This document shows, piece by piece, positions 121 to 12,537 of a DNA stretch of 12,537 nucleotides. The DNA lies in contig JAAFKI010000102.1 in the NCBI GenBank assembly GCA_021399345.1, positions 1 through 12,537 of the forward strand, in the 5' to 3' direction. The stretch comes from Candidatus Heimdallarchaeota archaeon (lineage in GTDB: Archaea; Asgardarchaeota; Heimdallarchaeia; Heimdallarchaeales; Heimdallarchaeaceae). The translations under genes were made by a program, and so were the position numbers. Under the pieces are notes generated by a model that was not told the origin of the DNA, did not search any database, and saw only the letters and a list, made by a program, of their open reading frames with translations. Position 1 is the first letter of the stretch, and each line of letters opens with the position of its first letter.

Positions 121-687
121 ATGGAAATTGAAAGTTTATTTCCTGAAATTAAAGAAATCAAGAATATTGATTTGTTGAATAAGGTAGCGAAATCTCTTGA
201 AAAAGCAATTCAACAAGGTGGATGGAGCACACAAGATCTTCACAAAATTCCTTTCACACTGTTAATTCCCGACTTAGTCAATGAAGATCTTACAGTGAAA
301 ATATCAATTATAGATCATATTCGAGCTGTAACACAGATGTGTTTAGCCACTTATGAAAGATATGAGATGCTTGGTCTTGGAGATAAGTTAAATAGAGATG
401 AGCTAATCGCAGGTGGATTACTACACGACGTAGGAAAATTCATCGAGTATGAAAAAGACGAAACTGGACATATAATTCAGACAGCGGAAGGAAAATACTT
501 ACGTCATCCAGCGATGGGTCTTGAATTAGTTTATGAATATTCTTTACCACTGATCGTTAGACAAGCCATTGTTTTTCACAGTAAAGAAGGAGATAAAATT
601 CCTAGATTAAAAGAAGTAGATATTATCCATCGCTGTGATTTTCTTTGCTTTGCTCCAATAAAACAAATATTCGAAGAAAATAAATGA
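121..687 (+). CDS. HD-domain (HDIG-type) metal-dependent phosphohydrolase, 188 aa
   Basis: Conserved HD-superfamily residues in order: DHIRAV, LIAGGLLHDVGK (HD at 424-429), LRHP, FHS, IHRCD. Size and motifs recall the MptB/MJ0837-like HD family; substrate not assignable. Confidence 0.88.
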   Translation: MEIESLFPEIKEIKNIDLLNKVAKSLEKAIQQGGWSTQDLHKIPFTLLIPDLVNEDLTVKISIIDHIRAVTQMCLATYERYEMLGLGDKLNRDELIAGGLLHDVGKFIEYEKDETGHIIQTAEGKYLRHPAMGLELVYEYSLPLIVRQAIVFHSKEGDKIPRLKEVDIIHRCDFLCFAPIKQIFEENK

Positions 688-705
688 GGAAAAGGTGTTT
701 TTGAA

Positions 706-1839
706 ATGAAGAAATACAAAATTGTAGTTTTACCAGGTGATGGTGTTGGTGTTGACGTAACAGAAGCAGCAATGAAAGTTCTGAAAGCTGTTGGATTTAG
801 TGATAAAGCTGAATATACATATGGAGATATTGGCTGGGAATTTTGGTGTAAGGAAGGAAATCCTTTACCAGATAGAACAATTGAGCTTCTCAAGAATTCA
901 GACTGTTCTTTGTTTTCAGCTATCACATCAAAACCCAAGGAAGAGGCTGAAAAGGAATTAGTTCCAGAATTACAAGGTAAGGGGTTAGTTTACTTTAGTC
1001 CTATTGTGAGATTACGACAACTGTTTGACCTTTATATCAACTTACGTCCTTGCAAAGCTTATCCAGGTAATCCTCTTAATTACAGGGATGATATTGATCT
1101 GGTAGTTTTTCGTGAAAATACTGAAGGACTTTATGTCGGAATCGAATGGCATCCTGTCCCAGAAGTAGTAATGAAAACAATTATTGAAAATCATCCCAAG
1201 GCAAAACGATTTGAAGAAGCGAATCTAGATGATGTAGCCATATCTACTAGAATATTCACTCGAGAAGGAGTTCAACGTATTCTCAAGGCTAGTATGGATT
1301 ATGCAAAGGAGTTTGACTACCCAACTGTAACTGTTGTAGAAAAACCAAATGTTATCAGAGAAACAAGTGGCTTGATGGTACGAGAAGCAAGAAAATTGAT
1401 ACAGGATTATGGCAACATAGAATTGTGGGAAACGAACATAGATGCAATGGCAATGTGGCTAGTAAAAAATCCTCAGAACTATGGGGTTTTAGTATCGTCT
1501 AACATGTTTGGAGATATTGTTTCAGACTTAGCAGCTCAGATAATAGGTGGGTTAGGTTTTGCTTGTTCAGGAAACATAGGAGAAAATTTTGCTGTTTTCG
1601 AGCCAACTCATGGATCAGCTCCCAAGTATGTGGGAATGAATAAAGTAAATCCAATTGCACAAATTCTTGCTGCAAAAATGATGTTAGATTGGTTGGATGA
1701 AAAAGACATGGCTAAAAAGATTGAAGATGCAGTAGCCGCTGTAATTGTTGAAGGAAAATATCGCACTTATGATATGGGCGGAAATACAACAACTTCTGAA
1801 ATGGCAGACGCCATTTGTGAGAAGATAAATGTCCTTTAA
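706..1839 (+). CDS. Isocitrate/homoisocitrate/isopropylmalate dehydrogenase family protein (homoisocitrate dehydrogenase-like, predicted NADP-type)
   Basis: LPGDGVG N-terminal motif; three substrate Args in RLRQLFDLYINLRP and FRENTEGLY (catalytic Tyr); catalytic Lys in EKPNV; metal-binding IDA..M and NMFGDIVSD; FEPTHGSAPKY. SD-like AGGTG at 693-697. Confidence 0.95.
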   Translation: MKKYKIVVLPGDGVGVDVTEAAMKVLKAVGFSDKAEYTYGDIGWEFWCKEGNPLPDRTIELLKNSDCSLFSAITSKPKEEAEKELVPELQGKGLVYFSPIVRLRQLFDLYINLRPCKAYPGNPLNYRDDIDLVVFRENTEGLYVGIEWHPVPEVVMKTIIENHPKAKRFEEANLDDVAISTRIFTREGVQRILKASMDYAKEFDYPTVTVVEKPNVIRETSGLMVREARKLIQDYGNIELWETNIDAMAMWLVKNPQNYGVLVSSNMFGDIVSDLAAQIIGGLGFACSGNIGENFAVFEPTHGSAPKYVGMNKVNPIAQILAAKMMLDWLDEKDMAKKIEDAVAAVIVEGKYRTYDMGGNTTTSEMADAICEKINVL

Positions 1840-1843
1840 CATA

Positions 1844-1863
1844 TTTTTTCCTTCATTTTTTTC
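1844..1863 (+). terminator. Candidate archaeal-type oligo-T terminator
   Basis: Two T runs (TTTTTT-CCTTCA-TTTTTTT) starting a few nt after the TAA at 1839, in the only large intergenic gap of the cluster. Confidence 0.45.
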
Positions 1864-1893
1864 TTACATCATTTTCTATGAAAATCAATGCCC

Positions 1894-1919
1894 CATAAAT
1901 ACATAACATAAATACATAA
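1894..1919. repeat. Perfect tandem direct repeat, 2 x 13 bp (CATAAATACATAA)
   Basis: 1894-1906 and 1907-1919 are identical. Confidence 0.9.
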
Positions 1920-1946
1920 GGATAATCTTATTACTTATTTATTAAT

Positions 1947-1952
1947 AGGTGA
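1947..1952 (+). promoter_or_regulatory. Shine-Dalgarno-like AGGTGA for the ATG at 1964
   Basis: Archaeal-type GGTGA 11 nt upstream of an in-frame ATG. Similar motifs precede 706 (AGGTG), 3229 (GAGGTG), 5609 (GAGGGA), 6922 (GGAGG) and 9084 (GGAG). Confidence 0.55.
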
Positions 1953-1963
1953 AACAGAGCGAA

Positions 1964-3232
1964 ATGACTAGCTTCACACTTATTGAAAAAATCATCAGAA
2001 ATCGTACAGATGTTTCAGATAGTGAGATCTATCCAAATAACATAGTATGGGTTAATCTTGATTTGGTTACAGCAAGAGATTATGCAGGACCTCAAGTTAT
2101 AGATCTATTTCAAAAAAACTATATTGGTTCTAAAACATTCAACAATGAAAAAGTTATCTTTACTCCAGATTGTTATCCTTATGGCAATGATCCAAAGCAT
2201 GCTAAAGATCAAGAAAAAATTCGCGTATTTGCCAAAGAACATGGAATCAAGGTAACTGATCTCGGGTCAGGTATAGGTTCTCATCTATTGTTTCGAAGAG
2301 GTTTTTCAAAACCAGGAGATGTAGTTATTGGAGCTGATAGCCATTATAATATTCTTGGAGCTTTAGGAATCTTAGGGCAAGGAGCAGGAGATGTCATGCT
2401 TGCTTTTGCCTTGAAAACAGGAAAATCATGGATAAAAATTCCTGAAACTGTAAAAATTATCTTAAAGGGAGATTATGAGTGGCCAACAACAGCAAAAGAT
2501 TTAGCTCTTTATGTTCTAAAAGAACTTCATGAATATGGAATTACAGGGAAAGCTGTCGAATTCTATGGTGCGATTATTGACAAGTTATCAATTGAAGAAA
2601 GAGTCACTTTATGTTCTCTAATTACAGAAGCTTCAGGCGTTATTGGATTTGTACCAGCTGATAAAATTACAGCTGATTATTACTCCAAGATTGGAATCGA
2701 GATAGAAATGTTATCCGCTGATGAAGATGCAAGATACATCTCAGAATTAGTCTTAGATATTCAAGATTTAGGCCAATACATCGCATGTCCTCCACATCCA
2801 CATAATGTCAAAAAAATTGAGGAAGTAATGGGTACTCCCATAAATTCTATTGTTATTGGTTCTTGTACAAATGGAAGTTCAGCAGATATTCATGATGCTG
2901 CAAAGATACTAAAGGGACACAAAATCAACCCAAATGTGAGATTTGGAATAGTTCCTGCAACTAGAGAGGATTTCGTTTCAATCAATCTAAATGGCGATAT
3001 GACAATAATTCTAGAATCTGGTGGAAACTTTTTTGGTGTAGGTTGTTCAACCTGCGCGAAGGGACAATATGGTTTAACCGGGGGTGAAACAGCTGTAACT
3101 TTAACAACAGGAAACAGAAACACTCAAGGCAAAATTGGTCCCGCAGATGTTTATTTAGCTAGTCCTGTTGTAGCTGCAGCTACAGCAATTGAAGGAAAAA
3201 TTGCTGCTCCTAAAGAGGTGGTTAAAAGATGA
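1964..3232 (+). CDS. Aconitase-family (LeuC/HacA-like) [4Fe-4S] hydro-lyase large subunit, divergent active site
   Basis: TLIEKII start, IGADSH, TGKSWIKIPET, TAKDLAL, three cluster cysteines (IGSCTNG, GCSTC), NRN, VYLASP..AAATAIEGKI. The ORF track starts at GTG 1949; ATG 1964 is preferred because that GTG lies within the SD motif. Confidence 0.92.
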   Translation: MTSFTLIEKIIRNRTDVSDSEIYPNNIVWVNLDLVTARDYAGPQVIDLFQKNYIGSKTFNNEKVIFTPDCYPYGNDPKHAKDQEKIRVFAKEHGIKVTDLGSGIGSHLLFRRGFSKPGDVVIGADSHYNILGALGILGQGAGDVMLAFALKTGKSWIKIPETVKIILKGDYEWPTTAKDLALYVLKELHEYGITGKAVEFYGAIIDKLSIEERVTLCSLITEASGVIGFVPADKITADYYSKIGIEIEMLSADEDARYISELVLDIQDLGQYIACPPHPHNVKKIEEVMGTPINSIVIGSCTNGSSADIHDAAKILKGHKINPNVRFGIVPATREDFVSINLNGDMTIILESGGNFFGVGCSTCAKGQYGLTGGETAVTLTTGNRNTQGKIGPADVYLASPVVAAATAIEGKIAAPKEVVKR

Positions 3233-3735
3233 GTAAAGAAACAATCAAAGCCAAAGCAAAGCTAGTCATAGTAGATGACATTGATACCGACCAAATATTT
3301 CATCAATCCTTATTAACAATTCATGACCCCAATGAAATAAAACCGCATATTTTCGGAAATCTTGAAGGGTATAAGAGTTTTGGAAAGGAAGATAATGTTG
3401 GGAAGATATTATTAGTTGGTAAAAATTTCGGTAAAGGATCCACAAGACAACAAGCTGTAACAGGATTTATAGCTCATGGAATCACAGCAATAGTTGGTGA
3501 ATCTTTTGGGCCAATTTATTATAGTAATTCTGTAAATTCAGGTTTACTCCTTGTTGAAGTACCAGGAATATCTGAATTCAAGGTTAAAGAAGATGATAAT
3601 CTAGAAATAGACATAACTCAATCATTAATTATCAACCAAAATAATGGGGAGACCATTAAATGTGTTAAAATACCTCAACCAGTATTAGATATAATAGAAG
3701 CTGGTGGTCTTTTAAAACTTGGAGAAATAATGTAA
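3229..3735 (+). CDS. Aconitase-family (LeuD/HacB-like) small (swivel) subunit, divergent
   Basis: DDIDTDQI, GKNFGKGSTRQQA (canonical GxNFGCGSSREHA), NSVNSGL, IIEAGGL. ATGA overlap with the upstream large subunit. Confidence 0.92.
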   Translation: MSKETIKAKAKLVIVDDIDTDQIFHQSLLTIHDPNEIKPHIFGNLEGYKSFGKEDNVGKILLVGKNFGKGSTRQQAVTGFIAHGITAIVGESFGPIYYSNSVNSGLLLVEVPGISEFKVKEDDNLEIDITQSLIINQNNGETIKCVKIPQPVLDIIEAGGLLKLGEIM

Positions 3736-3747
3736 AAAGTGGGATAT

Positions 3748-5598
3748 ATGAATGGCAAAACATTTTCAGAAAAACTTTTTTCGTTTAAATCAAATACAGG
3801 TGTGAAAGCTGGCGACATTGTTTATGCTGAACCTGATTTAATTCTGTCACACGATAATTCAGCATCAATAGAAAAGACTTTTCAAAAAATGGGTGGAACA
3901 AAAATCAAATTTCCTGAACGTCTTGTAATAGTCTTGGATCATGATTCACCACCAACGAGTGCCAAGATAGCAAATGATCATAAAAGTATAAGAGAATTAG
4001 TTAAAAAGCAGAATATAACTAATTTCTATGATGAGGGGAGGGGAATCTGCCATCAGTTGATGTCCAACCATGCTTCACCTAATATGCTCATTGTTGGATC
4101 AGATTCTCATACATGCACAAGTGGTGCATTTGCTACATTTGCAGCAGGAATTGATAGAACAGAAACAGCAGGATTGTGGTTAACAGGAAAGACTTGGTTT
4201 AGGGTTCCTGAAACAATTAAAGTTGTGCTAAATGGTAAATTACCTTTGGGTGTTTATGCAAAGGATATTGCTTTATGGTTAATGAATAAAATAGGCGCTG
4301 CTGGAGCGACCTATTATGCAATTGAGTTTCATGGAAAGGGTGTAGAAGCTTTATCTGTATCTGAAAGAATGACACTAGCAAACCTAGCTTCAGAGATGGG
4401 CGCTAAAACAGCTATTTTCCCACCAGACAAAGTTTTAATCAAATGGTCAAAAGAGAAACATGGTTCATCTGTAATTCCACAAGAAAAACTATTCTGGTCG
4501 GACAAAGATGCAATATTTAGCAGAGAAATCATTCTAGATTTAGCAAAATTGGAACCTTTAGTTGCGGTTCCACATCAAGTAGATAACACACAGTTTGCCA
4601 AAAAACTAGAAAAAACCCCCATTCATCAAGCTTTTCTGGGAACTTGTACAAATGCCAGATTAGATGATTTAGAGATTGCTGCGGAAATAATCAAAGATAA
4701 AAAAGTGAAAAATGGAGTGATGTTTCTTGTAGCTCCAGCTTCAAACAAAATCTATCTTGAAGCTTCAGAGAAGGGAGTTATTCAAACACTTGTTAAGGCA
4801 GGTGCAATAATACTTTCATGCAGTTGTGGTCCGTGTTTAGGTAAGGGACAAGGAATACCAGCTGACGACTGGAATGTTTTATCTACTGCAAACAGGAATT
4901 TTCTGGGAAGAATGGGAAATAAAAATGCACGTATATTTTTGGCATCTCCAGCAACTATAACAGCTTCTGCAATTGAAGGAAAAATTACAGACCCCAGAAA
5001 ATATCTATCATCTGGAGCCATAAGAGAGGAAACTGAAATAGAGCTACAATATAGAGATGTAGAAACTAAAACCCTTGAAATAGACTCTAAAGACGATAGA
5101 TACAACATGTATGTTTGGGATTATAGTGATGTTGACGATTTCAACACAGATCAGATGTTTGCGGGAGGTCTTACATACGATATTAAATCTTCAGAGGGAG
5201 ATAAAATAGTTCCACATTTATTCAAAGGCTTAGATGAAACTTTTGCAACTAGAATTAAGGAGGGGGATATTGTAATAGGTGGAGAAAATTTTGGATGTGG
5301 TTCATCAAGAGAACATCCAGCTGTAGGACTTGCAGCTGCGGGTGTTAAAGCTGTTATTGTAAAATCAGTATCTCGGATCTTTTATAGATCTGCAATTAAC
5401 CAGGGATTACCAATCATTGTACATCAAGAGTTCATTGAAAAATTTGATAAAAATCAGCAAACAACAATTGACTTAGAAAAAGGCCAAATTACAAATGGAA
5501 GTCAAGTTTATTCTTTCCCAAAACTACCAAGTGAATTACTAGAAATATTCACAGCTGGAGGACTTATCAAATATTATCAAAAACAATACTCAAACTAG
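3748..5598 (+). CDS. Fused large+small subunit aconitase-family hydro-lyase (homoaconitase-like)
   Basis: Large domain: SHDN, LDHD, GRGICHQ, GSDSHTCTSGA, FLGTCTN, SCGPCLG, STANRNFLGRMG, LASP. After a ~40 aa linker, small domain: NTDQMF, GENFGCGSSREHP, SRIFYRSAINQGLP, AGGLI. The ORF track starts at GTG 3739; ATG 3748 is the likelier start. Confidence 0.93.
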   Translation: MNGKTFSEKLFSFKSNTGVKAGDIVYAEPDLILSHDNSASIEKTFQKMGGTKIKFPERLVIVLDHDSPPTSAKIANDHKSIRELVKKQNITNFYDEGRGICHQLMSNHASPNMLIVGSDSHTCTSGAFATFAAGIDRTETAGLWLTGKTWFRVPETIKVVLNGKLPLGVYAKDIALWLMNKIGAAGATYYAIEFHGKGVEALSVSERMTLANLASEMGAKTAIFPPDKVLIKWSKEKHGSSVIPQEKLFWSDKDAIFSREIILDLAKLEPLVAVPHQVDNTQFAKKLEKTPIHQAFLGTCTNARLDDLEIAAEIIKDKKVKNGVMFLVAPASNKIYLEASEKGVIQTLVKAGAIILSCSCGPCLGKGQGIPADDWNVLSTANRNFLGRMGNKNARIFLASPATITASAIEGKITDPRKYLSSGAIREETEIELQYRDVETKTLEIDSKDDRYNMYVWDYSDVDDFNTDQMFAGGLTYDIKSSEGDKIVPHLFKGLDETFATRIKEGDIVIGGENFGCGSSREHPAVGLAAAGVKAVIVKSVSRIFYRSAINQGLPIIVHQEFIEKFDKNQQTTIDLEKGQITNGSQVYSFPKLPSELLEIFTAGGLIKYYQKQYSN

Positions 5599-5608
5599 AG
5601 GGATAAAA

Positions 5609-6925
5609 ATGAAATTATACGAATATGAGGCAAAGCAGATTTTTGAACAGTTTAACCTTAAAATTCCTAAACAAATAGCAATAATAGAAAGTGTTGAAGA
5701 TTTAGTGGACATATCTTTAGAATTTCCAATTATGATTAAGGCTATGGTTTTAATTGGGGGAAGGGGAAAAGCAGGAGGAATAAAGAAAGCTGAAACTATT
5801 GAGGAAACAGAGAACATCATAAAAGAAATGTTGGGTTTAACAATTCATGGTTATCCTATAAAGAAAATTTTACTTGAGGAAGCGGTTGATATTGCTAGTG
5901 AAATCTACCTGTCCATAACCACTGATCCTGCAACTTTTGATATAGTATTGGTTACATCTGCAAGTGGTGGTGTTGATATTGAAGAAGTTGCTCGAACTAA
6001 ACCAGATGAAATATGGAAGAAAGTACTAAGAAATAATGACAAATCTTTGAATGCTGAAATAGGAAAAAAAGCTGCTGATTTTCTAGTAGATAAAGATCAA
6101 AATCTCCAACTAGTGAGTGAAAAACTTCAACAAGCTATTGAATCTCTCTATTTGGCTTTTCAGGATGCTGAAGCAAAAATTTGTGAAATAAATCCCCTAA
6201 TTGTAACAAAGAAAGGAGACATAATTGTTGCTGATGCGAAATTTGTACTTGATGATAACAGTTTGTACAGACAAACACCTTTGCTGAAATCAATTGGGAT
6301 AGATCCCGGAAGTAAAAGGCACGATGTTTCAGAGCAAACAGCTTTTGAAGCAAAAGCATATCAAATCGGCTTTCCGTTCATTGATTTACTAGAGAATCCA
6401 GAGAATTTTGTGAAAGATGAAGAGAAACTGTATGTAGGTCTTGTTCCAGGAGGAGCAGGATATGGAATTTTTTCTGTAGATGAAATTGTTAATGTTGGAA
6501 ATCGATATTTCAATGGCAAGGTTGTTCCCATAAATTTCATGGATAGTGGTGGTGGTCCTTCAATAAGTAAGGTTGCAGATATGTTTCACCTTCTTATGAA
6601 TCATCCAGCAACAGATCTGATTATAACTAGTCGTTTTGGGGGGATATCTAGTTGTGATGTCTTCATTCAAGGATTGATTATGTCATTAAGAGATAGATTC
6701 ATTGCTAAGAAAATAATGATACCGGTTTATGGTCGAATGGTTGGAACTGATTTAGCTGCTGCAAAAGCCTTCCTTGAGAAAGCTAAGCTAGAAACACCAG
6801 AACCACTAATAGACTTACACATTGTTGTTGGAAATCAAAAGATAATGGTGGATGTCATTAAAGATGGAATTGAATATGGGTTTAAAGTGAAAAAACAAAG
6901 TGAGAATATGGAGGGTATTAAATGA
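5609..6925 (+). CDS. Succinyl-CoA synthetase beta-like / acyl-CoA synthetase (NDP-forming) ATP-grasp subunit; probable partner subunit of an ATP-citrate-lyase-like enzyme
   Basis: MKLYEYEAK, KAMVLIGGRGKAGGIK, EIYLSI, GGVDIEEVA, EINPL, ADAKFVLDDNSLYRQ; C-terminal ligase domain with GGAG, NFMDSGGG and FGGI. Confidence 0.9.
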   Translation: MKLYEYEAKQIFEQFNLKIPKQIAIIESVEDLVDISLEFPIMIKAMVLIGGRGKAGGIKKAETIEETENIIKEMLGLTIHGYPIKKILLEEAVDIASEIYLSITTDPATFDIVLVTSASGGVDIEEVARTKPDEIWKKVLRNNDKSLNAEIGKKAADFLVDKDQNLQLVSEKLQQAIESLYLAFQDAEAKICEINPLIVTKKGDIIVADAKFVLDDNSLYRQTPLLKSIGIDPGSKRHDVSEQTAFEAKAYQIGFPFIDLLENPENFVKDEEKLYVGLVPGGAGYGIFSVDEIVNVGNRYFNGKVVPINFMDSGGGPSISKVADMFHLLMNHPATDLIITSRFGGISSCDVFIQGLIMSLRDRFIAKKIMIPVYGRMVGTDLAAAKAFLEKAKLETPEPLIDLHIVVGNQKIMVDVIKDGIEYGFKVKKQSENMEGIK

Positions 6926-9063
6926 CAACTGATAAATTAGCCGTGGATCAAGGACTTCTCTATTATCTCATCAAACACATTCGTCCTGAACTCGCTCAGA
7001 AAATATCCGAAAAGAAAACAATTGAAACTATGATTGTTGGATTAGGAAGACAAGGAACTCGACACGCGCAACTTATGATGGAATATGGGACCAACGTTAC
7101 ATGTGGAGTAGCACCAGGCAAAGGTGGTACATATGTTCATGAAACTGTTCCTGTTTATGAATCTGCTGAGTCAGCAAAAAGGAAATACCCTGATATAGCT
7201 GTAGCAAGTATATGGAAACATTATTCTTCTGCTAAGGATGCTACAATTGAAGCTATTAGATCAGGAATTCCTATTGTTGTTCTAATTTCAGAATTTATTC
7301 CATTAAAGGATGTAAGAGACATTCTAGTTGAAGCTAGAAAACATAAAACAATCTTATTTGGTGGTAACACACCAGGAATAATATTTCCTCCAGAAGGAAT
7401 AAAAGTGGGTATGCTTCCAGATATTTTTCAGGCTCAAAAAACAGATAACAAAACTGGTCCCAAAGGAGTGACAATTTTATCGCGAAGTGGAGCTATTCTA
7501 TATCATTTATCTGATGCACTAGCTAGTGCAGGAATTGCTCAAAATGGAGTATTGGGTGTAGGGGGAGATGGAGCTATTGGTTCTCGTTTTATAGATCTTG
7601 TTTCAAGAATAATGCAATACGAGCACACAGATTTAGTTGTTATCGCTGGTGAAATTGGTGGAATGCAGGAAGAATTGCTAGCTCAAGACATGGAAGCAAA
7701 TCCAGAAAAATATCCAAAACCTCTAGTTGCATTAATATCAGGAGCCAATGCTCCGGAAGGAAAAACCATGGGGCATGCAGGAGCTGTAATTTCTCCTGGG
7801 CAAAGTTATGGTACCTATCAAACAAAGAAGGAATCCTTGGAAAAAGCAGGAGTAACTGTAGTAAACCATCAAAGAGATTTAATAGATGCTGTAAGGTCAA
7901 AATTAAATCGAATATATTTTGATATTGAGGAATATTACTCAAAAATGCGTAAAAAATGGGATGCTAGACCACCAGTGAAAACTTGGGGGACTTTAGTAAC
8001 TAATGTAATGCCAAACAATTTGATAATACGAGGATATCCTCTACAAGAAATTATAGCAGAAAAAGGATTTTTGGAAACGTCATATTTACTCCTTAAAGGA
8101 GAATTTCCTGAAGAAGCTCAACTTAAAGAGCTTGAAGATATTGCAAAAGAAGCAATAAAACAAGAATTCGCGGACCTTAAATCGATTACCATAAGTTCAG
8201 ATATTTCTAAAACTCTTGGAACATTGATGTTGGTCGATAATAAACTTGCAGATTTTGTAAGATTGAATTCTGAAGAAACAAAAATCGCTGCTTATACATT
8301 GGGAAGAGTATTGAAGTATTTTGCATATATTCTAGGCAATTTAGATCAACTAGAATCTTCTTCAGTTTCTGAAACATCATTCTCAGAAATGATATATATA
8401 GGATTGGTCAAAGAAAAAAACCCAGACACGCTTAAAGTTAAGCTGTTAGAAGCAATGATTACTGCTTGTGTAGATCACGGAATCACACCACCATCAGCTC
8501 AAGCAACAATAATTCTAGCGTCGACTAGAGCTAATTATGAAGTAGCTGTAGCTGGAGGTTTACAAGCAATTACTGATGTTCATGGTGGTGCAGGACAAAA
8601 GGCAGCTAAATTCTTCTTATCAGTTGTTGAAAAAGCTGAAAAAGAAAAATTGGAACTCGATGAATCCACCTTCAAATTGATACGTGAAACAATCAAAACC
8701 GGCAAAAGAATTGAAGGTTTAGGTCACCGTATTCATACACAAGATCCTAGAAGAGATGTTTTATGGAAACTTGCAGAAGATGCAGGATATGCAAAGAGTT
8801 GTGTTGATGTTTCAAAAATGATTAGTAGTGCTTTCCACCGCGTGCGAGGAATGAACCTCCCAATTAACGTAGATGGGGTTATTGCGGCGATTACAGCTGA
8901 CATGGGATTAGACCCAAAACTTGCAAAAGTTATTTTTGTATTTGGGAGAACAGCAGGACTGGCCGCACATTATTTTGAGGAAATTAATACTCAGCCTCAG
9001 ATGAGAAGGATTGCGTTTGATAAAGCTACTTACAAAGGACCATCAATTAGAGAAATTAAATAG
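6922..9063 (+). CDS. SucD-like CoA-binding/phospho-His subunit fused to a citryl-CoA lyase/citrate synthase-fold domain (ATP-citrate-lyase-like large subunit)
   Basis: N-half: GVAPGKGG, GGNTPG, SRSG, GVGGD, GEIGG, GKTMGHAGA (phospho-His at 7774-7776). C-half from ~7984: IRGYPL, DHGITPPS, HGGAG, GLGHRIH..DPR, PINVDG, GRTAGLAAHYFEE. ATGA overlap with the beta-like gene. Confidence 0.92.
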   Translation: MTTDKLAVDQGLLYYLIKHIRPELAQKISEKKTIETMIVGLGRQGTRHAQLMMEYGTNVTCGVAPGKGGTYVHETVPVYESAESAKRKYPDIAVASIWKHYSSAKDATIEAIRSGIPIVVLISEFIPLKDVRDILVEARKHKTILFGGNTPGIIFPPEGIKVGMLPDIFQAQKTDNKTGPKGVTILSRSGAILYHLSDALASAGIAQNGVLGVGGDGAIGSRFIDLVSRIMQYEHTDLVVIAGEIGGMQEELLAQDMEANPEKYPKPLVALISGANAPEGKTMGHAGAVISPGQSYGTYQTKKESLEKAGVTVVNHQRDLIDAVRSKLNRIYFDIEEYYSKMRKKWDARPPVKTWGTLVTNVMPNNLIIRGYPLQEIIAEKGFLETSYLLLKGEFPEEAQLKELEDIAKEAIKQEFADLKSITISSDISKTLGTLMLVDNKLADFVRLNSEETKIAAYTLGRVLKYFAYILGNLDQLESSSVSETSFSEMIYIGLVKEKNPDTLKVKLLEAMITACVDHGITPPSAQATIILASTRANYEVAVAGGLQAITDVHGGAGQKAAKFFLSVVEKAEKEKLELDESTFKLIRETIKTGKRIEGLGHRIHTQDPRRDVLWKLAEDAGYAKSCVDVSKMISSAFHRVRGMNLPINVDGVIAAITADMGLDPKLAKVIFVFGRTAGLAAHYFEEINTQPQMRRIAFDKATYKGPSIREIK

Positions 9064-9083
9064 GATGTTGATTGGAGAAAAGA

Positions 9084-9884
9084 ATGAAGAATCTAGCATT
9101 TGAGATAATTGGGGATATATTAATCATCAGGGATGATTCTGATGAAATTTCTTTGAAAAGCTTTGCAGAAGAAAAAATCCAAAAGCACTCTTTTATTAAA
9201 ACAGTATTACTTCAAACCTCCAAAATCCATGGACAAGAGCGAAAAAGAAAGATCAGGTATGTTATGGGAAAAAACAAATCAGAAACAATTCACAAAGAGC
9301 ATGGAAATTCATTCTTAGTAGATTTATCTGAAGTATTTTTCTCTCCTCGTTTGAGTTATGAAAGACAACGAATTGCTAATTTGATTGGAGAAAATGAGAT
9401 AATTCTAAATTTCTTTTCAGGAGTTGGTCCGTTTAGTATAGCTTTAGCATCGAAATGCAATTCATGTGTTGTTCATAGTATTGAAATAAACAAAACAGCA
9501 TATGATTGTCTTCTCAAAAATATTGAAACAAACAAATGTCAGGAAAAAGTTATCCCTTATTTCGGAGACGCTTTTGAGATTGTTCCAAAAATGTTTATCA
9601 ACAGTGTAAATAGGGTTTTGCTTCCTTTACCTCTAGATTCAGACAAAGCCCTCCCAATAGCTTATCAAACTTTGAAAGACGGAAGAGGAATTATTCATTG
9701 GCAAATTACAAAAAGAATAAGCTCAAAAGAGATAAGGGAAGAAATAATTATTGACAGAATTAATAGCATCCCCCATTCATACAATTTCTCCAAGAATTAT
9801 ACAATTACAGATATGAGATTAATTAGATGGTTAGGTCCAAAAATAGCACATATTGCAGTAGATTTAAGTTTCAAAGCTCCTTAA
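9084..9884 (+). CDS. Trm5/Taw2-family (Met-10-like) SAM-dependent tRNA G37/wyosine-pathway transferase, lacking the N-terminal D1 domain
   Basis: FEIIGDILII, TIHKEHG..F.VDL..VFFSPRLSYERQR, SAM motif FSGVGPFSI, IEIN..AY..L..N...NK, GDA, RVLLPLP. The ORF track starts at TTG 9072; ATG 9084 follows a GGAG. Confidence 0.88.
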   Translation: MKNLAFEIIGDILIIRDDSDEISLKSFAEEKIQKHSFIKTVLLQTSKIHGQERKRKIRYVMGKNKSETIHKEHGNSFLVDLSEVFFSPRLSYERQRIANLIGENEIILNFFSGVGPFSIALASKCNSCVVHSIEINKTAYDCLLKNIETNKCQEKVIPYFGDAFEIVPKMFINSVNRVLLPLPLDSDKALPIAYQTLKDGRGIIHWQITKRISSKEIREEIIIDRINSIPHSYNFSKNYTITDMRLIRWLGPKIAHIAVDLSFKAP

Positions 9885-10305
9885 TAGAACTAACATAATC
9901 TGCGTATTCCTCAAGTTCTTTGAAATAATCTTCTGATGTAAAGATATATTCATTTGAGTTATTAATATCTCGAATAATTTGTAAGAGATCCTGAAGAGAT
10001 AAAATTCCATTAGTAATTAATAAATCGAAATTTGCAATTAAACAGACAGCATTTTTCAAAACACTTAATGTATCAAGTAGAGTGTTCCGAACATTATTCA
10101 CTGCCTCATTAGATCCAATTGTTACATAGGGAATAGAGTCTTCTAGCTCTAAATCCGGAATCCAAGTAAAAGAATCATCAATAATGATTACCAATACAGG
10201 TTTTGAGTGCCCTTTTGCTCTTAAAATTGATCCTAATCCAGTATGAAAAGCTCCTTTTCTCACACCAAAATAGTAATGGGTTAAGTAAAGGTCAGTCATA
10301 AACAT
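9871..10305 (-). CDS. CobO/BtuR (cob(I)alamin adenosyltransferase)-fold protein, degenerate
   Basis: HYYFGVRKG...GLGSILRAKGHSKPVLVI aligns by eye with the family's hYTGxGKGKTTAAhGxAhRAxGHGxKV. The C-terminal GILSLQDLLQII...EYIFTS....ELEEYADYVS matches GLI..EEVL.....ELVLTGR.....L.E.AD.VT. Confidence 0.6.
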   Translation of the reverse strand: MFMTDLYLTHYYFGVRKGAFHTGLGSILRAKGHSKPVLVIIIDDSFTWIPDLELEDSIPYVTIGSNEAVNNVRNTLLDTLSVLKNAVCLIANFDLLITNGILSLQDLLQIIRDINNSNEYIFTSEDYFKELEEYADYVSSIKEL

Positions 10306-10312
10306 CTACTTA

Positions 10313-11722
10313 CTAATTAGATTGACTTTGTAATTTTGCCAAGTATCGCTTGTATCCATCTAGAGTGTCTTCAACTCTCAACATATGCCTTTCTGCTTTA
10401 ATTCGTAGTTCTTGCCATTCCTCTTCATCGATTTTCTCCGAATTTAGAGCATGTTCTAATTGTTGGATTCTCTCTATGGCCTTTTGTCTTCGGGTTCCGA
10501 GGTGTTTGATAACATTCTCAATATCTTCGAATTGAATAGGGGTTTTATCTGTTTCTCCAGCTTCTGCCTCAATAATTTTAGTTAATGCAGATTTCTCTTC
10601 TTCCGGTTCTAAATCTTTTTCCTTGGATACATGTGCTATCGTTTCCTTTATTGAGGATACAAAGTCAGCAGCTGTTTCTCTCTGCTCGGGGGACGATAAA
10701 ACTTGATTTAATCTAGATATAGAAGAACGAAACTCATGGACTTCAGCAATTTCTTTCTCACTTAATCCTTCTTCACTTATCACACTTTCTTCAATTGAAG
10801 GGGTGCTTGGAAGCGTAATTTCTCCTTCTTCTTCACTAATGGATATTAGTTTTTCTGTTAATGGAGAAATAACTGTATCATCTCCCGGATCCAAGGCAGA
10901 TAACAAACCTGCTAACTCCTTCAAAGCTTCTTGCTCTGTTTCAATATTTTGCATAAAGGGTTCTTGCTCAAATTCATATTGGGAAGCAAGTTCAATGCCT
11001 TCAATCAGGTCTTTAGCATCATCCATCAAATCCTTTTCAGGTTGCTCAGTTGTTTCTGAAATATCATCCAAAGGAGCAGAATCCACCGGTACAGAATCCA
11101 ATTCAACTTCTTCAATAATTTCTTGTTCTTTAATTTCCTCAACTTCAGGCTTTTCTGTTTCAGCTTCAATCAGTTCTTCAAAAACTTGAACATCAGAATC
11201 GTCTTGTTTTTTTTCCTCGTTTTGCTTTATAGGAATCTGTTTTGATGGTTCAATTTCTGTAATTTGAATATTACTTCTTTGGAGCTGTAACAAGGCTGTT
11301 GTTTGTTGTTTCAGCTTTTTTGTTTCTTCACGAATAGAATTAATGTTAAGCTCCAACGTTTCAAGTTTTGCATTAATGAACTGTAATGTATCATTTTCAG
11401 TACCACTGAATCTATGATATTCTATTTGTAACATATTTGCATATGTAATTACATTGTAAACTGTATCAATCATTTCAGGTAATTCTCTAAACCAAGGTCC
11501 TGCACTGTCGAATTTCAGAAGAATATCCTTAGCAGTCGAAAAATGCTTTTCGTACTCTTTTTGTTGCTCTGGTGGTAAACAAGTTTTAACATATGAGGAA
11601 AGAGTAGCCAGATTTGTTATAAGATGTGTTTTAACATCCTCCTCTTCTTCTGGATTGAATTTACCCTTTAGAACTCCCCAAAACATCGTTTTAATTTCTT
11701 CAATTGCTTTCTCAAGGCTCAT
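10313..11722 (-). CDS. Hypothetical acidic, coiled-coil / partly disordered protein, 469 aa
   Basis: Long ORF packed 2 nt and 7 nt from its neighbours; helical N-terminus, heptad segment, long E/D/P/S-rich middle and helical C-terminus. No family recognised. Confidence 0.85.
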   Translation of the reverse strand: MSLEKAIEEIKTMFWGVLKGKFNPEEEEDVKTHLITNLATLSSYVKTCLPPEQQKEYEKHFSTAKDILLKFDSAGPWFRELPEMIDTVYNVITYANMLQIEYHRFSGTENDTLQFINAKLETLELNINSIREETKKLKQQTTALLQLQRSNIQITEIEPSKQIPIKQNEEKKQDDSDVQVFEELIEAETEKPEVEEIKEQEIIEEVELDSVPVDSAPLDDISETTEQPEKDLMDDAKDLIEGIELASQYEFEQEPFMQNIETEQEALKELAGLLSALDPGDDTVISPLTEKLISISEEEGEITLPSTPSIEESVISEEGLSEKEIAEVHEFRSSISRLNQVLSSPEQRETAADFVSSIKETIAHVSKEKDLEPEEEKSALTKIIEAEAGETDKTPIQFEDIENVIKHLGTRRQKAIERIQQLEHALNSEKIDEEEWQELRIKAERHMLRVEDTLDGYKRYLAKLQSQSN

Positions 11723-11724
11723 TT

Positions 11725-12537
11725 TTAAAACCCTAAATTAATTGTTCTTCGTTTAGTGAAATCATGAGGTAATGAAGGCTCTAAATAAATTTTATCGATT
11801 TTTAAATCATCCTTCAGCTGAATAGTAACATCAAGTTTTTCTTTCGAATCAATGTTCCAGAAATATAGAGATGGTTTTATTCCTGATCGAGAATACTCAC
11901 TTAGTATAGAAAATGAACTTACCAGATGTTGATACTCAGGACTTTTTTTAGCAGGAAAAGATTCACTCCATGGATTCACATGAATGATTATATTGTTTGT
12001 AATCTTTGCTAATTCTGTGATATTTTGACCAAAGAACTCATTAGCTCCAGTAATAAAACCAGTTTCTTTATCAGCTTTTAATACAAAAGAAATATCGATA
12101 TTCTTTAGGTTTTTCACAGTATCTGTAATTTCTCTTAATGTTTGATTAATGTAAGTAGACCTTTCATCATTCCAATTTTCCATTAGGTCCCGGGATTCAA
12201 GATATTCAAAACTGAAATCTCTTTCAATATTCCACTTGCTCGCAAATAATCTCCTACATCTATCACAGAAACAAGTTCTTTTGCTTGCCAACATCAAATC
12301 GTCTAATACCAAATTTTCTATTGGGTAATGAGCTATTTCTGATGCTATAGCTGCTGAATATTTTACCAAATTTTCTTGGCTTGGACAAGAATATGAAGCA
12401 ATAGTAGCGCCATCGCTACTACTTAGTTGAAAATCAGTGTTTTGGGAAAGAAAACTATCCCCATGAACATAAGTAACCGCATCCACTTTTATTCCCATAT
12501 TGTCTGCAATTGTACAAAATGAATGAAAGAAGACACC
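11725..12537 (-). CDS. 5'-truncated putative glycoside-hydrolase-like TIM-barrel protein (GHL10/GHL6-like) with CxCxxC motif
   Basis: The frame is open from the window edge (GVFFHSFCTIADN-MGIKVDA...), so ATG 12498 is probably internal. The pattern GIKVDA...D...G....CPS.......EIAHYPIENLVLDD...CFCDRC...F resembles GHL-type barrels. Confidence 0.55.
   Translation of the reverse strand, partial: GVFFHSFCTIADNMGIKVDAVTYVHGDSFLSQNTDFQLSSSDGATIASYSCPSQENLVKYSAAIASEIAHYPIENLVLDDLMLASKRTCFCDRCRRLFASKWNIERDFSFEYLESRDLMENWNDERSTYINQTLREITDTVKNLKNIDISFVLKADKETGFITGANEFFGQNITELAKITNNIIIHVNPWSESFPAKKSPEYQHLVSSFSILSEYSRSGIKPSLYFWNIDSKEKLDVTIQLKDDLKIDKIYLEPSLPHDFTKRRTINLGF

Follow-up and report, generated by a model that had tools for sequence, protein, structure and literature searches.

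A SucD-like and citrate-synthase-fold fusion of Heimdallarchaeota is probably an ATP-citrate lyase-like enzyme of separate lineage

The 12,537-nucleotide stretch of DNA analysed here (the window) is a whole contig of a Heimdallarchaeota metagenome-assembled genome (MAG) that is 88.6% complete. Its plus strand encodes, at 6922-9063, a 713-amino acid (aa) alpha subunit, P0001, in which a SucD-like half is fused to a half with a citrate-synthase fold. The start of this gene is overlapped (ATGA) by the gene of a 438-aa SucC-like partner, the beta subunit (5609-6925, plus strand). Together, the two genes probably encode a two-subunit, ATP-dependent enzyme that cleaves or forms citrate, similar to ATP-citrate lyase (ACL) and of separate lineage. 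In the mechanism that we propose, the beta subunit would bind ATP and phosphorylate His285 of the SucD-like half, citrate and CoA would be converted to citryl-CoA, and the citrate-synthase-fold half would split citryl-CoA into acetyl-CoA and oxaloacetate via His554, His602 and Asp651; all steps would be reversible. Which substrate is used, in which direction flux runs and that citryl-CoA is not hydrolysed are only inferred.

An earlier note on this DNA, made from the letters alone, had read the open reading frame (ORF) at 6922-9063 as a SucD-like protein fused to a citryl-CoA lyase. In agreement with this, the frame was open over all 713 aa and contained three Pfam domains: CoA_binding (aa 35-124), Ligase_CoA (aa 186-308) and Citrate_synt (aa 360-693). 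A hypothetical protein of Heimdallarchaeota at NCBI shared 97% identity with P0001. Profile and structure-database matches and the tree described below defined the SucD-like half as aa 35-332 (7024-7917), made of the CoA-binding and ligase-CoA domains. Compared with solved structures, this half scored 181 bits with Aeropyrum SucD and 99 bits with CcsB, a citryl-CoA synthetase (CCS) subunit, of Hydrogenobacter; whole P0001 reached 107 bits with Chlorobium AclA, spread over two stretches. The claim that the N-half is nearer to SucD than to ACL was thus borne out. The NCBIfam SucD score of the alpha subunit was 218 bits, below the curated cut-off of 353.

All the motifs quoted in the earlier note were found in the ORF. 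In the N-half these are VGLGRQG (7036-7056), GVAPGKGG (7105-7128), IWKHY (7210-7224), SEFIP (7288-7302), GGNTPG (7360-7377), SRSGAILYH (7480-7506) and MGHAGA (7768-7785), the last containing the predicted phospho-histidine His285 (7774-7776); in the C-half they are DHG (8473-8481), DVHGGAG (8575-8595), with the His554 codon starting at 8581 as given there, and NVDG (8866-8877). Several of these had been regarded as private changes of this protein. They are present, but alignments indicated that the one-residue deletion in GL-GxQG, IW(K/R)HY and AILYH are kept throughout the fused family. The N-terminal extension of ~30 aa (6922-7011), also listed as private, is likewise family-specific: it is kept in fused members from Asgard archaea, Thermoplasmata, Aminicenantes and Bipolaricaulia and is absent from SucD, CcsB-like proteins and AclA. 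SEFIP is confined to the Heimdall branch, the remaining fused members having SEGIP or TEGIP.

The C-half (aa 341-713, 373 aa; 7942-9060) was modelled by AlphaFold2 as a full-length citrate-synthase fold (pLDDT 96). The model fitted whole citrate synthases best (TMq 0.71-0.77, ~380 columns), and Hydrogenobacter citryl-CoA lyase (CCL; 6hxp) superposed on it over only 235 columns, at 33% identity. Against the sequences of solved structures, the same half scored 121 bits with the Hydrogenobacter CCL and ~63 bits with citrate synthases, and it was 33-38% identical to CCLs versus 22-25% to citrate synthases. Judged by these comparisons, the C-half is closest in sequence to citryl-CoA lyases, despite its whole citrate-synthase fold. 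The "lyase half" of the earlier note is therefore no short CCL but has the full length of a citrate synthase. Its best NCBIfam citrate-synthase equivalog score was 97 bits for a cut-off of 421, and the general Pfam cut-off was passed.

Alignment and fold matching both identified a segment of ~105 aa (~aa 399-505; 8116-8436), common to citrate synthases, which is missing at identical boundaries from short CCLs and canonical AclA. A tree grouping citrate synthases with the long forms, apart from all short forms, was not rejected by the approximately unbiased (AU) test (p 0.43), so that the data are compatible with one insertion or deletion. Between 8476 and 9006 lie eight active-site residues of citrate synthase: H519, H554, H602, R610, D651, F672, R676 and R695, which correspond in this order to H229, H264, H305, R314, D362, F383, R387 and R407 of Escherichia coli GltA. 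Canonical AclA has Phe at the position of GltA H264 and Tyr at that of R407; short CCLs keep all eight. The His of DVHGGAG, highlighted in the earlier note as a trait of citrate synthase, thus sets P0001 apart from ACL (GPRFGGA, with Phe) but does not distinguish it from CCL.

The beta subunit was also closest to succinyl-CoA synthetase (SCS). It scored 174 bits with the Thermus SCS beta chain and 78 bits with CcsA, and no ACL beta chain matched it below E 1e-10. The Citrate_bind domain (PF16114), common to the beta subunits of ACL and CCS-like enzymes, gave no Pfam match in the beta subunit or elsewhere in the genome. Alignment placed two insertions at 6389-6427 and 6500-6520 and two loops of SCS type with private changes, VPGGAGYG (6443-6466; PGGAGYG versus NGAGLAM) and SRFGGISSCD (6629-6658; versus NIFGGIxRCD). 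CcsA-like proteins and AclB have GGGAS and GG(I/T)ANFTD loops, neither of which occurs in the window beta subunit. The NCBIfam SucC score was 243 bits, below the cut-off of 370.

Phylogenies of the separate halves and of the beta subunit bear on the proposal of the earlier note that the protein arose by a separate fusion event. All trees were unrooted, and their canonical references were Asgard AclA and AclB only. Ten AclA genes lying next to Citrate_bind genes at Asgard loci were taken as canonical references; one of them, compared with 6hxi/6hxh, scored 790 bits with Methanothrix ACLY-B and 763 bits with human ACLY, and they were therefore considered truly canonical. In each half, these Asgard AclA proteins shared just 25-28% identity with P0001. 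For the C-half, trees were built from 93 rows and, in a more careful run, from 50 rows, the bootstrap of which had not fully settled (correlation 0.979). Fused proteins and standalone relatives of 345-381 aa formed one clade (99 SH-aLRT; 100/99 in the careful tree), canonical AclA formed a separate, very long-stemmed clade (100/100), and short CCLs were placed between the two. Within the long-form family, fused and standalone forms were interspersed, forcing at least three changes of state; fusion or fission therefore occurred repeatedly. In the N-half tree, the fused proteins formed one clade (100) joined to genuine SucD (96); outside this group lay AclA, two shorter fused types and the CcsB-like protein of a split CCS/CCL-like trio (locus L047, described below). 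In the beta tree, SucC was the sister group of the fusion partners (94), and AclB and the CcsA-like protein stood apart (95). The two halves thus did not both branch within the canonical ACL clade. The ~105-aa deletion, common to ACL and short CCLs and absent in P0001, agrees with the trees, as do the Citrate_bind domain and the loops that ACL and CCS-like beta subunits have in common and that the window beta subunit lacks. Collectively, these results support the view that the window enzyme belongs to a lineage separate from canonical ACL and was assembled independently.

Alternatively, P0001 could be a highly divergent descendant of the single fusion behind canonical ACL, with standalone long forms and short CCLs derived by later fissions. 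The repeated changes between fused and unfused states within the family show that fission or fusion is frequent, a root placed inside SCS in these unrooted trees would unite all citrate-type systems, and the AU test on the N-half alone did not reject a clade of the fused family with AclA (p 0.21). A single fusion, however, requires that the loss of the ~105-aa segment and the ACL-type loops of the beta subunit postdate the split, yet both are common to unfused CCS/CCL-like genes. It is also at odds with the unfused short CCLs, which all C-half trees put in between the two fused groups, and with the support of 96 for SucD plus the fused family to the exclusion of the CcsB-like protein and AclA. 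We consider such a common origin improbable and favour an independent assembly.

The strongest functional clue is a module swap in Thermoplasmatota. Locus L101 (4575-12101) contains an HD gene, both aconitase types and a gene similar to the isocitrate dehydrogenase (IDH) family, as does the operon of the window; at 6815-9274, a citF gene immediately followed by a standalone long form replaces the SucC-like gene and the SucD-like half. CitF is the alpha subunit of citrate lyase, a citrate CoA-transferase. It is also paired with a long form at L024 (2983-5590), and genes for CitF and a short CCL adjoin the fusion operon of one Asgard genome, G292 (L086:4962-7443). Since CitF and an SCS-like ligase can each make an acyl-CoA from a free acid, their shared intermediate would most simply be citryl-CoA. 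The citrate-synthase-fold module would then be a citryl-CoA lyase or, in reverse, a synthase without hydrolysis. CitF genes adjoining genes for citrate-synthase-fold lyases, long or short, were seen in Thermoplasmatota and in one Asgard genome. Such pairs suggest a citrate lyase that needs no ATP, works with free CoA esters and consists of CitF and a citrate-synthase-fold lyase in place of CitE and CitD.

We also considered that the chain might unite two independent activities, a true SCS alpha subunit and a true citrate synthase, held together for co-expression or as a metabolon, with no citryl-CoA passed between them. The N-half and the beta subunit are indeed nearest to SCS, the C-half combines a complete citrate-synthase fold with the eight active-site residues of that enzyme, no second citrate synthase was found in the genome, and public annotation names the protein either SucD or citrate/2-methylcitrate synthase. 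Nevertheless, this organisation seems rather improbable to us, because the NCBIfam scores for SCS and citrate synthase are all far under their cut-offs, the loop residues of the beta subunit are unlike those of SCS, the alpha Glu208 is replaced by His, the nearest sequences of the C-half are citryl-CoA lyases, and standalone long forms adjoin CitF, which makes citryl-CoA. Furthermore, the genome contains a fragment of a genuine SucD gene, cut by the end of a 1647-bp contig (C70:1253-1645), which is 58% identical to an Asgard SucD, versus 40% for the fusion. A search of the MAG for full-length matches would miss this fragment. As homologues of SdhAB are also encoded, the SCS-like half of P0001 is not needed for succinate.

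Several observations weigh against an ACL-like citrate enzyme of separate lineage. The site-I glutamate of SCS (E. coli SucD Glu208) is replaced by His195 in the alpha subunit (7504-7506; TLTYE to AILYH); His was found in 6/6 fused members aligned, and SucD, AclA and the CcsB-like protein have Glu. The substrate loops of the beta subunit fit neither SCS nor ACL exactly, so that citrate as the substrate is drawn from context only. The N-half AU test left a clade with AclA unrejected, as described above. The best NCBIfam models of the neighbouring genes are homoaconitase and homoisocitrate dehydrogenase, with every score below its cut-off. Finally, in another Asgard family the fusion coexists in some genomes with canonical ACL and an ordinary citrate synthase; the enzymes are therefore not simply interchangeable, and the role of the fusion in those genomes is not plain redundancy. 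Such a combination was seen in G256 (L040, L041, L081, L085) and G292 (L086), where the fusion occurs alongside ordinary citrate synthases and a canonical ACL operon. The pair of CitF and short CCL is an addition of G292, and in G256 a citrate-synthase domain lies within a 614-aa ORF.

The fusion is the last gene of a tight, plus-strand operon of seven genes. According to Pfam and NCBIfam profile searches, the upstream genes (121-5598) encode an HD protein (121-687), an IDH-family dehydrogenase (706-1839), the large (1949-3232) and small (3229-3735) subunits of an aconitase-family enzyme and a fused aconitase (3739-5598), so that two different aconitase-family enzymes are encoded. The seven-gene order is retained at 21 related Heimdall loci, down to ~71% identity, and cut copies were found at three more. 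This setting could mean that the substrate is another tricarboxylate, such as homocitrate or 2-methylcitrate, and that the operon serves an ATP-coupled elongation or degradation of 2-oxoacids in place of the citrate arm of the tricarboxylic acid (TCA) cycle. The altered acid-binding loops of the beta subunit, the two distinct aconitase-family enzymes and the top-ranking homoaconitase and homoisocitrate dehydrogenase families would all suit such a pathway. We regard it as unlikely: the neighbour matches are all under curated cut-offs, the oxaloacetate-binding residues H519, H602, R610, R676 and R695 are intact, canonical ACL operons of other Asgard archaea also hold a fused aconitase and an IDH-family gene, and the citrate CoA-transferase family CitF takes the place of the SCS-like part in the sister operon. 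The genes downstream of the operon (9072-12537) appear unrelated to it. They include a Taw21/Trm5-type tRNA methyltransferase (9072-9884, plus strand), a weak CobA-like ORF (9871-10305, minus strand) and an ORF of 469 aa (10313-11722, minus strand) that matched neither Pfam nor NCBIfam.

Besides the fusion, no gene of the Citrate_synt family was found in the window genome, a MAG of the completeness given above. In a class-level sample, the fusion was the sole Citrate_synt match in 23/28 other Heimdallarchaeaceae genomes, and the remaining 5/28 had no match. Classical citrate synthase was found in none of these 28 genomes and is present in sister families. In the window genome and most of its family, where no other relative of citrate synthase was found, the fusion is therefore the sole candidate for the cycle's citrate step. 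The enzyme may thus run towards citrate, yielding ATP, although the data are equally compatible with citrate cleavage. More tentatively, it is possible, if somewhat doubtful, that the Heimdallarchaeaceae enzyme is an ATP-yielding citrate synthase, storing the energy of the thioester as ATP, and that its C-half, handling citryl-CoA without hydrolysis, is a surviving intermediate form linking citrate synthase to citryl-CoA lyase. If true, the common origin that has been proposed for citrate synthase and the ACL lyase module would become directly testable.

Fused members of the family were found in many Asgard groups, Thermoplasmatota (2/151 sampled genomes), Aminicenantales and Bipolaricaulia, and standalone long forms in Thermoplasmata, Planctomycetota, Myxococcota and others; the long-form family comprised ~20 clusters at 50% identity. 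Canonical ACL is present in Asgard archaea: the Citrate_bind domain of AclB was detected in 80/301 sampled genomes, though in 0/28 other genomes of the window's family. ACL in Asgard archaea has been reported (bioRxiv 2022.10.25.513756, PMC11976288); no description of the 713-aa fusion type was found in the literature searched.

The public labels "succinyl-CoA synthetase alpha" or "citrate/2-methylcitrate synthase" could lead automated reconstructions to credit Heimdall archaea with two ordinary TCA enzymes because of a single unusual one. The direction and energy coupling of the enzyme decide how the cycle is read in these close relatives of the eukaryotic host lineage. The family adds to the evidence for repeated assembly of ACL-like enzymes, with citrate-synthase-fold lyase modules combined with citryl-CoA makers of CCS, SCS or CitF type. 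A full citrate-synthase fold that groups by sequence with lyases also bears on the relation between synthase and lyase modules.

Among known systems, type I ACL (Chlorobium limicola 6hxj, Methanothrix 6hxi/6znw and human ACLY) resembles the window enzyme in combining an ATP-grasp beta gene with a fused alpha gene that carries the GHAGA histidine, and in an operon with aconitase and an IDH-family gene. Unlike type I ACL, the window beta subunit lacks Citrate_bind, GGGAS and GGIANFTD. Type I ACL has a short CSH domain (~260 aa) with RFGGA, whereas the window C-half has 373 aa with DVHGGAG and is ~105 aa longer; ACL also has Phe and Tyr where the window protein keeps His554 and Arg695, and the 25-28% identity of either half to Asgard AclA is accompanied by separate clades in all trees. 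Compared with CcsAB and CCL of Hydrogenobacter thermophilus (6hxq, 6hxp), the same two-step chemistry is presumed, no solved structure matches the C-half better in sequence than this CCL, and CCLs also keep the His of HGGA. The differences are that the alpha and lyase parts of the window enzyme are fused, that its lyase has the full citrate-synthase fold, and that its SCS-like parts both score higher with SCS than with CcsA or CcsB. It thus departs from a layout in which the three genes are separate and the CCL is short (~260 aa). Such a split CCS/CCL-like trio occurs at L047:853-3735 in G145, a genome from the taxonomic order of the window, and consists of a 414-aa beta subunit that matches Citrate_bind, a SucD-like protein of 305 aa and a CCL of 251 aa.

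Relative to SucCD, the window pair is without the site-I glutamate and the NGAGLAM and NIFGGIxRCD loops and falls below the SucD and SucC cut-offs. With citrate synthase (PF00285) it shares the whole fold, the catalytic His/His/Asp and the oxaloacetate-binding Arg residues, but the identity is 22-25%, all scores are below the NCBIfam cut-offs, and the C-half is fused to an SCS-like half or, in relatives, paired with CitF. This fusion or pairing implies that citryl-CoA is not hydrolysed.

A "type II ACL" was postulated by Hügler and Sievert (2011), as cited in PMC3522073 and PMC6783814, and fused Planctomycetes enzymes were described by Thiel et al. 2017 (PMC5459899). Similarly to the window enzyme, these are non-canonical, two-gene candidates for citrate cleavage annotated as SCS subunits and citrate synthase. 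Identity with the Planctomycetes enzymes was considered and set aside, as the large Phycisphaerae family (P0268, ~571 aa) is shorter and a different fusion, of a SucD-like half and a short CCL, placed elsewhere in both trees. The P0268 type is very common in Phycisphaerae, and P0359 (555 aa) is another fusion of a SucD-like half and a short CCL. The own place of each type in both trees suggests that these are further separate fusions.

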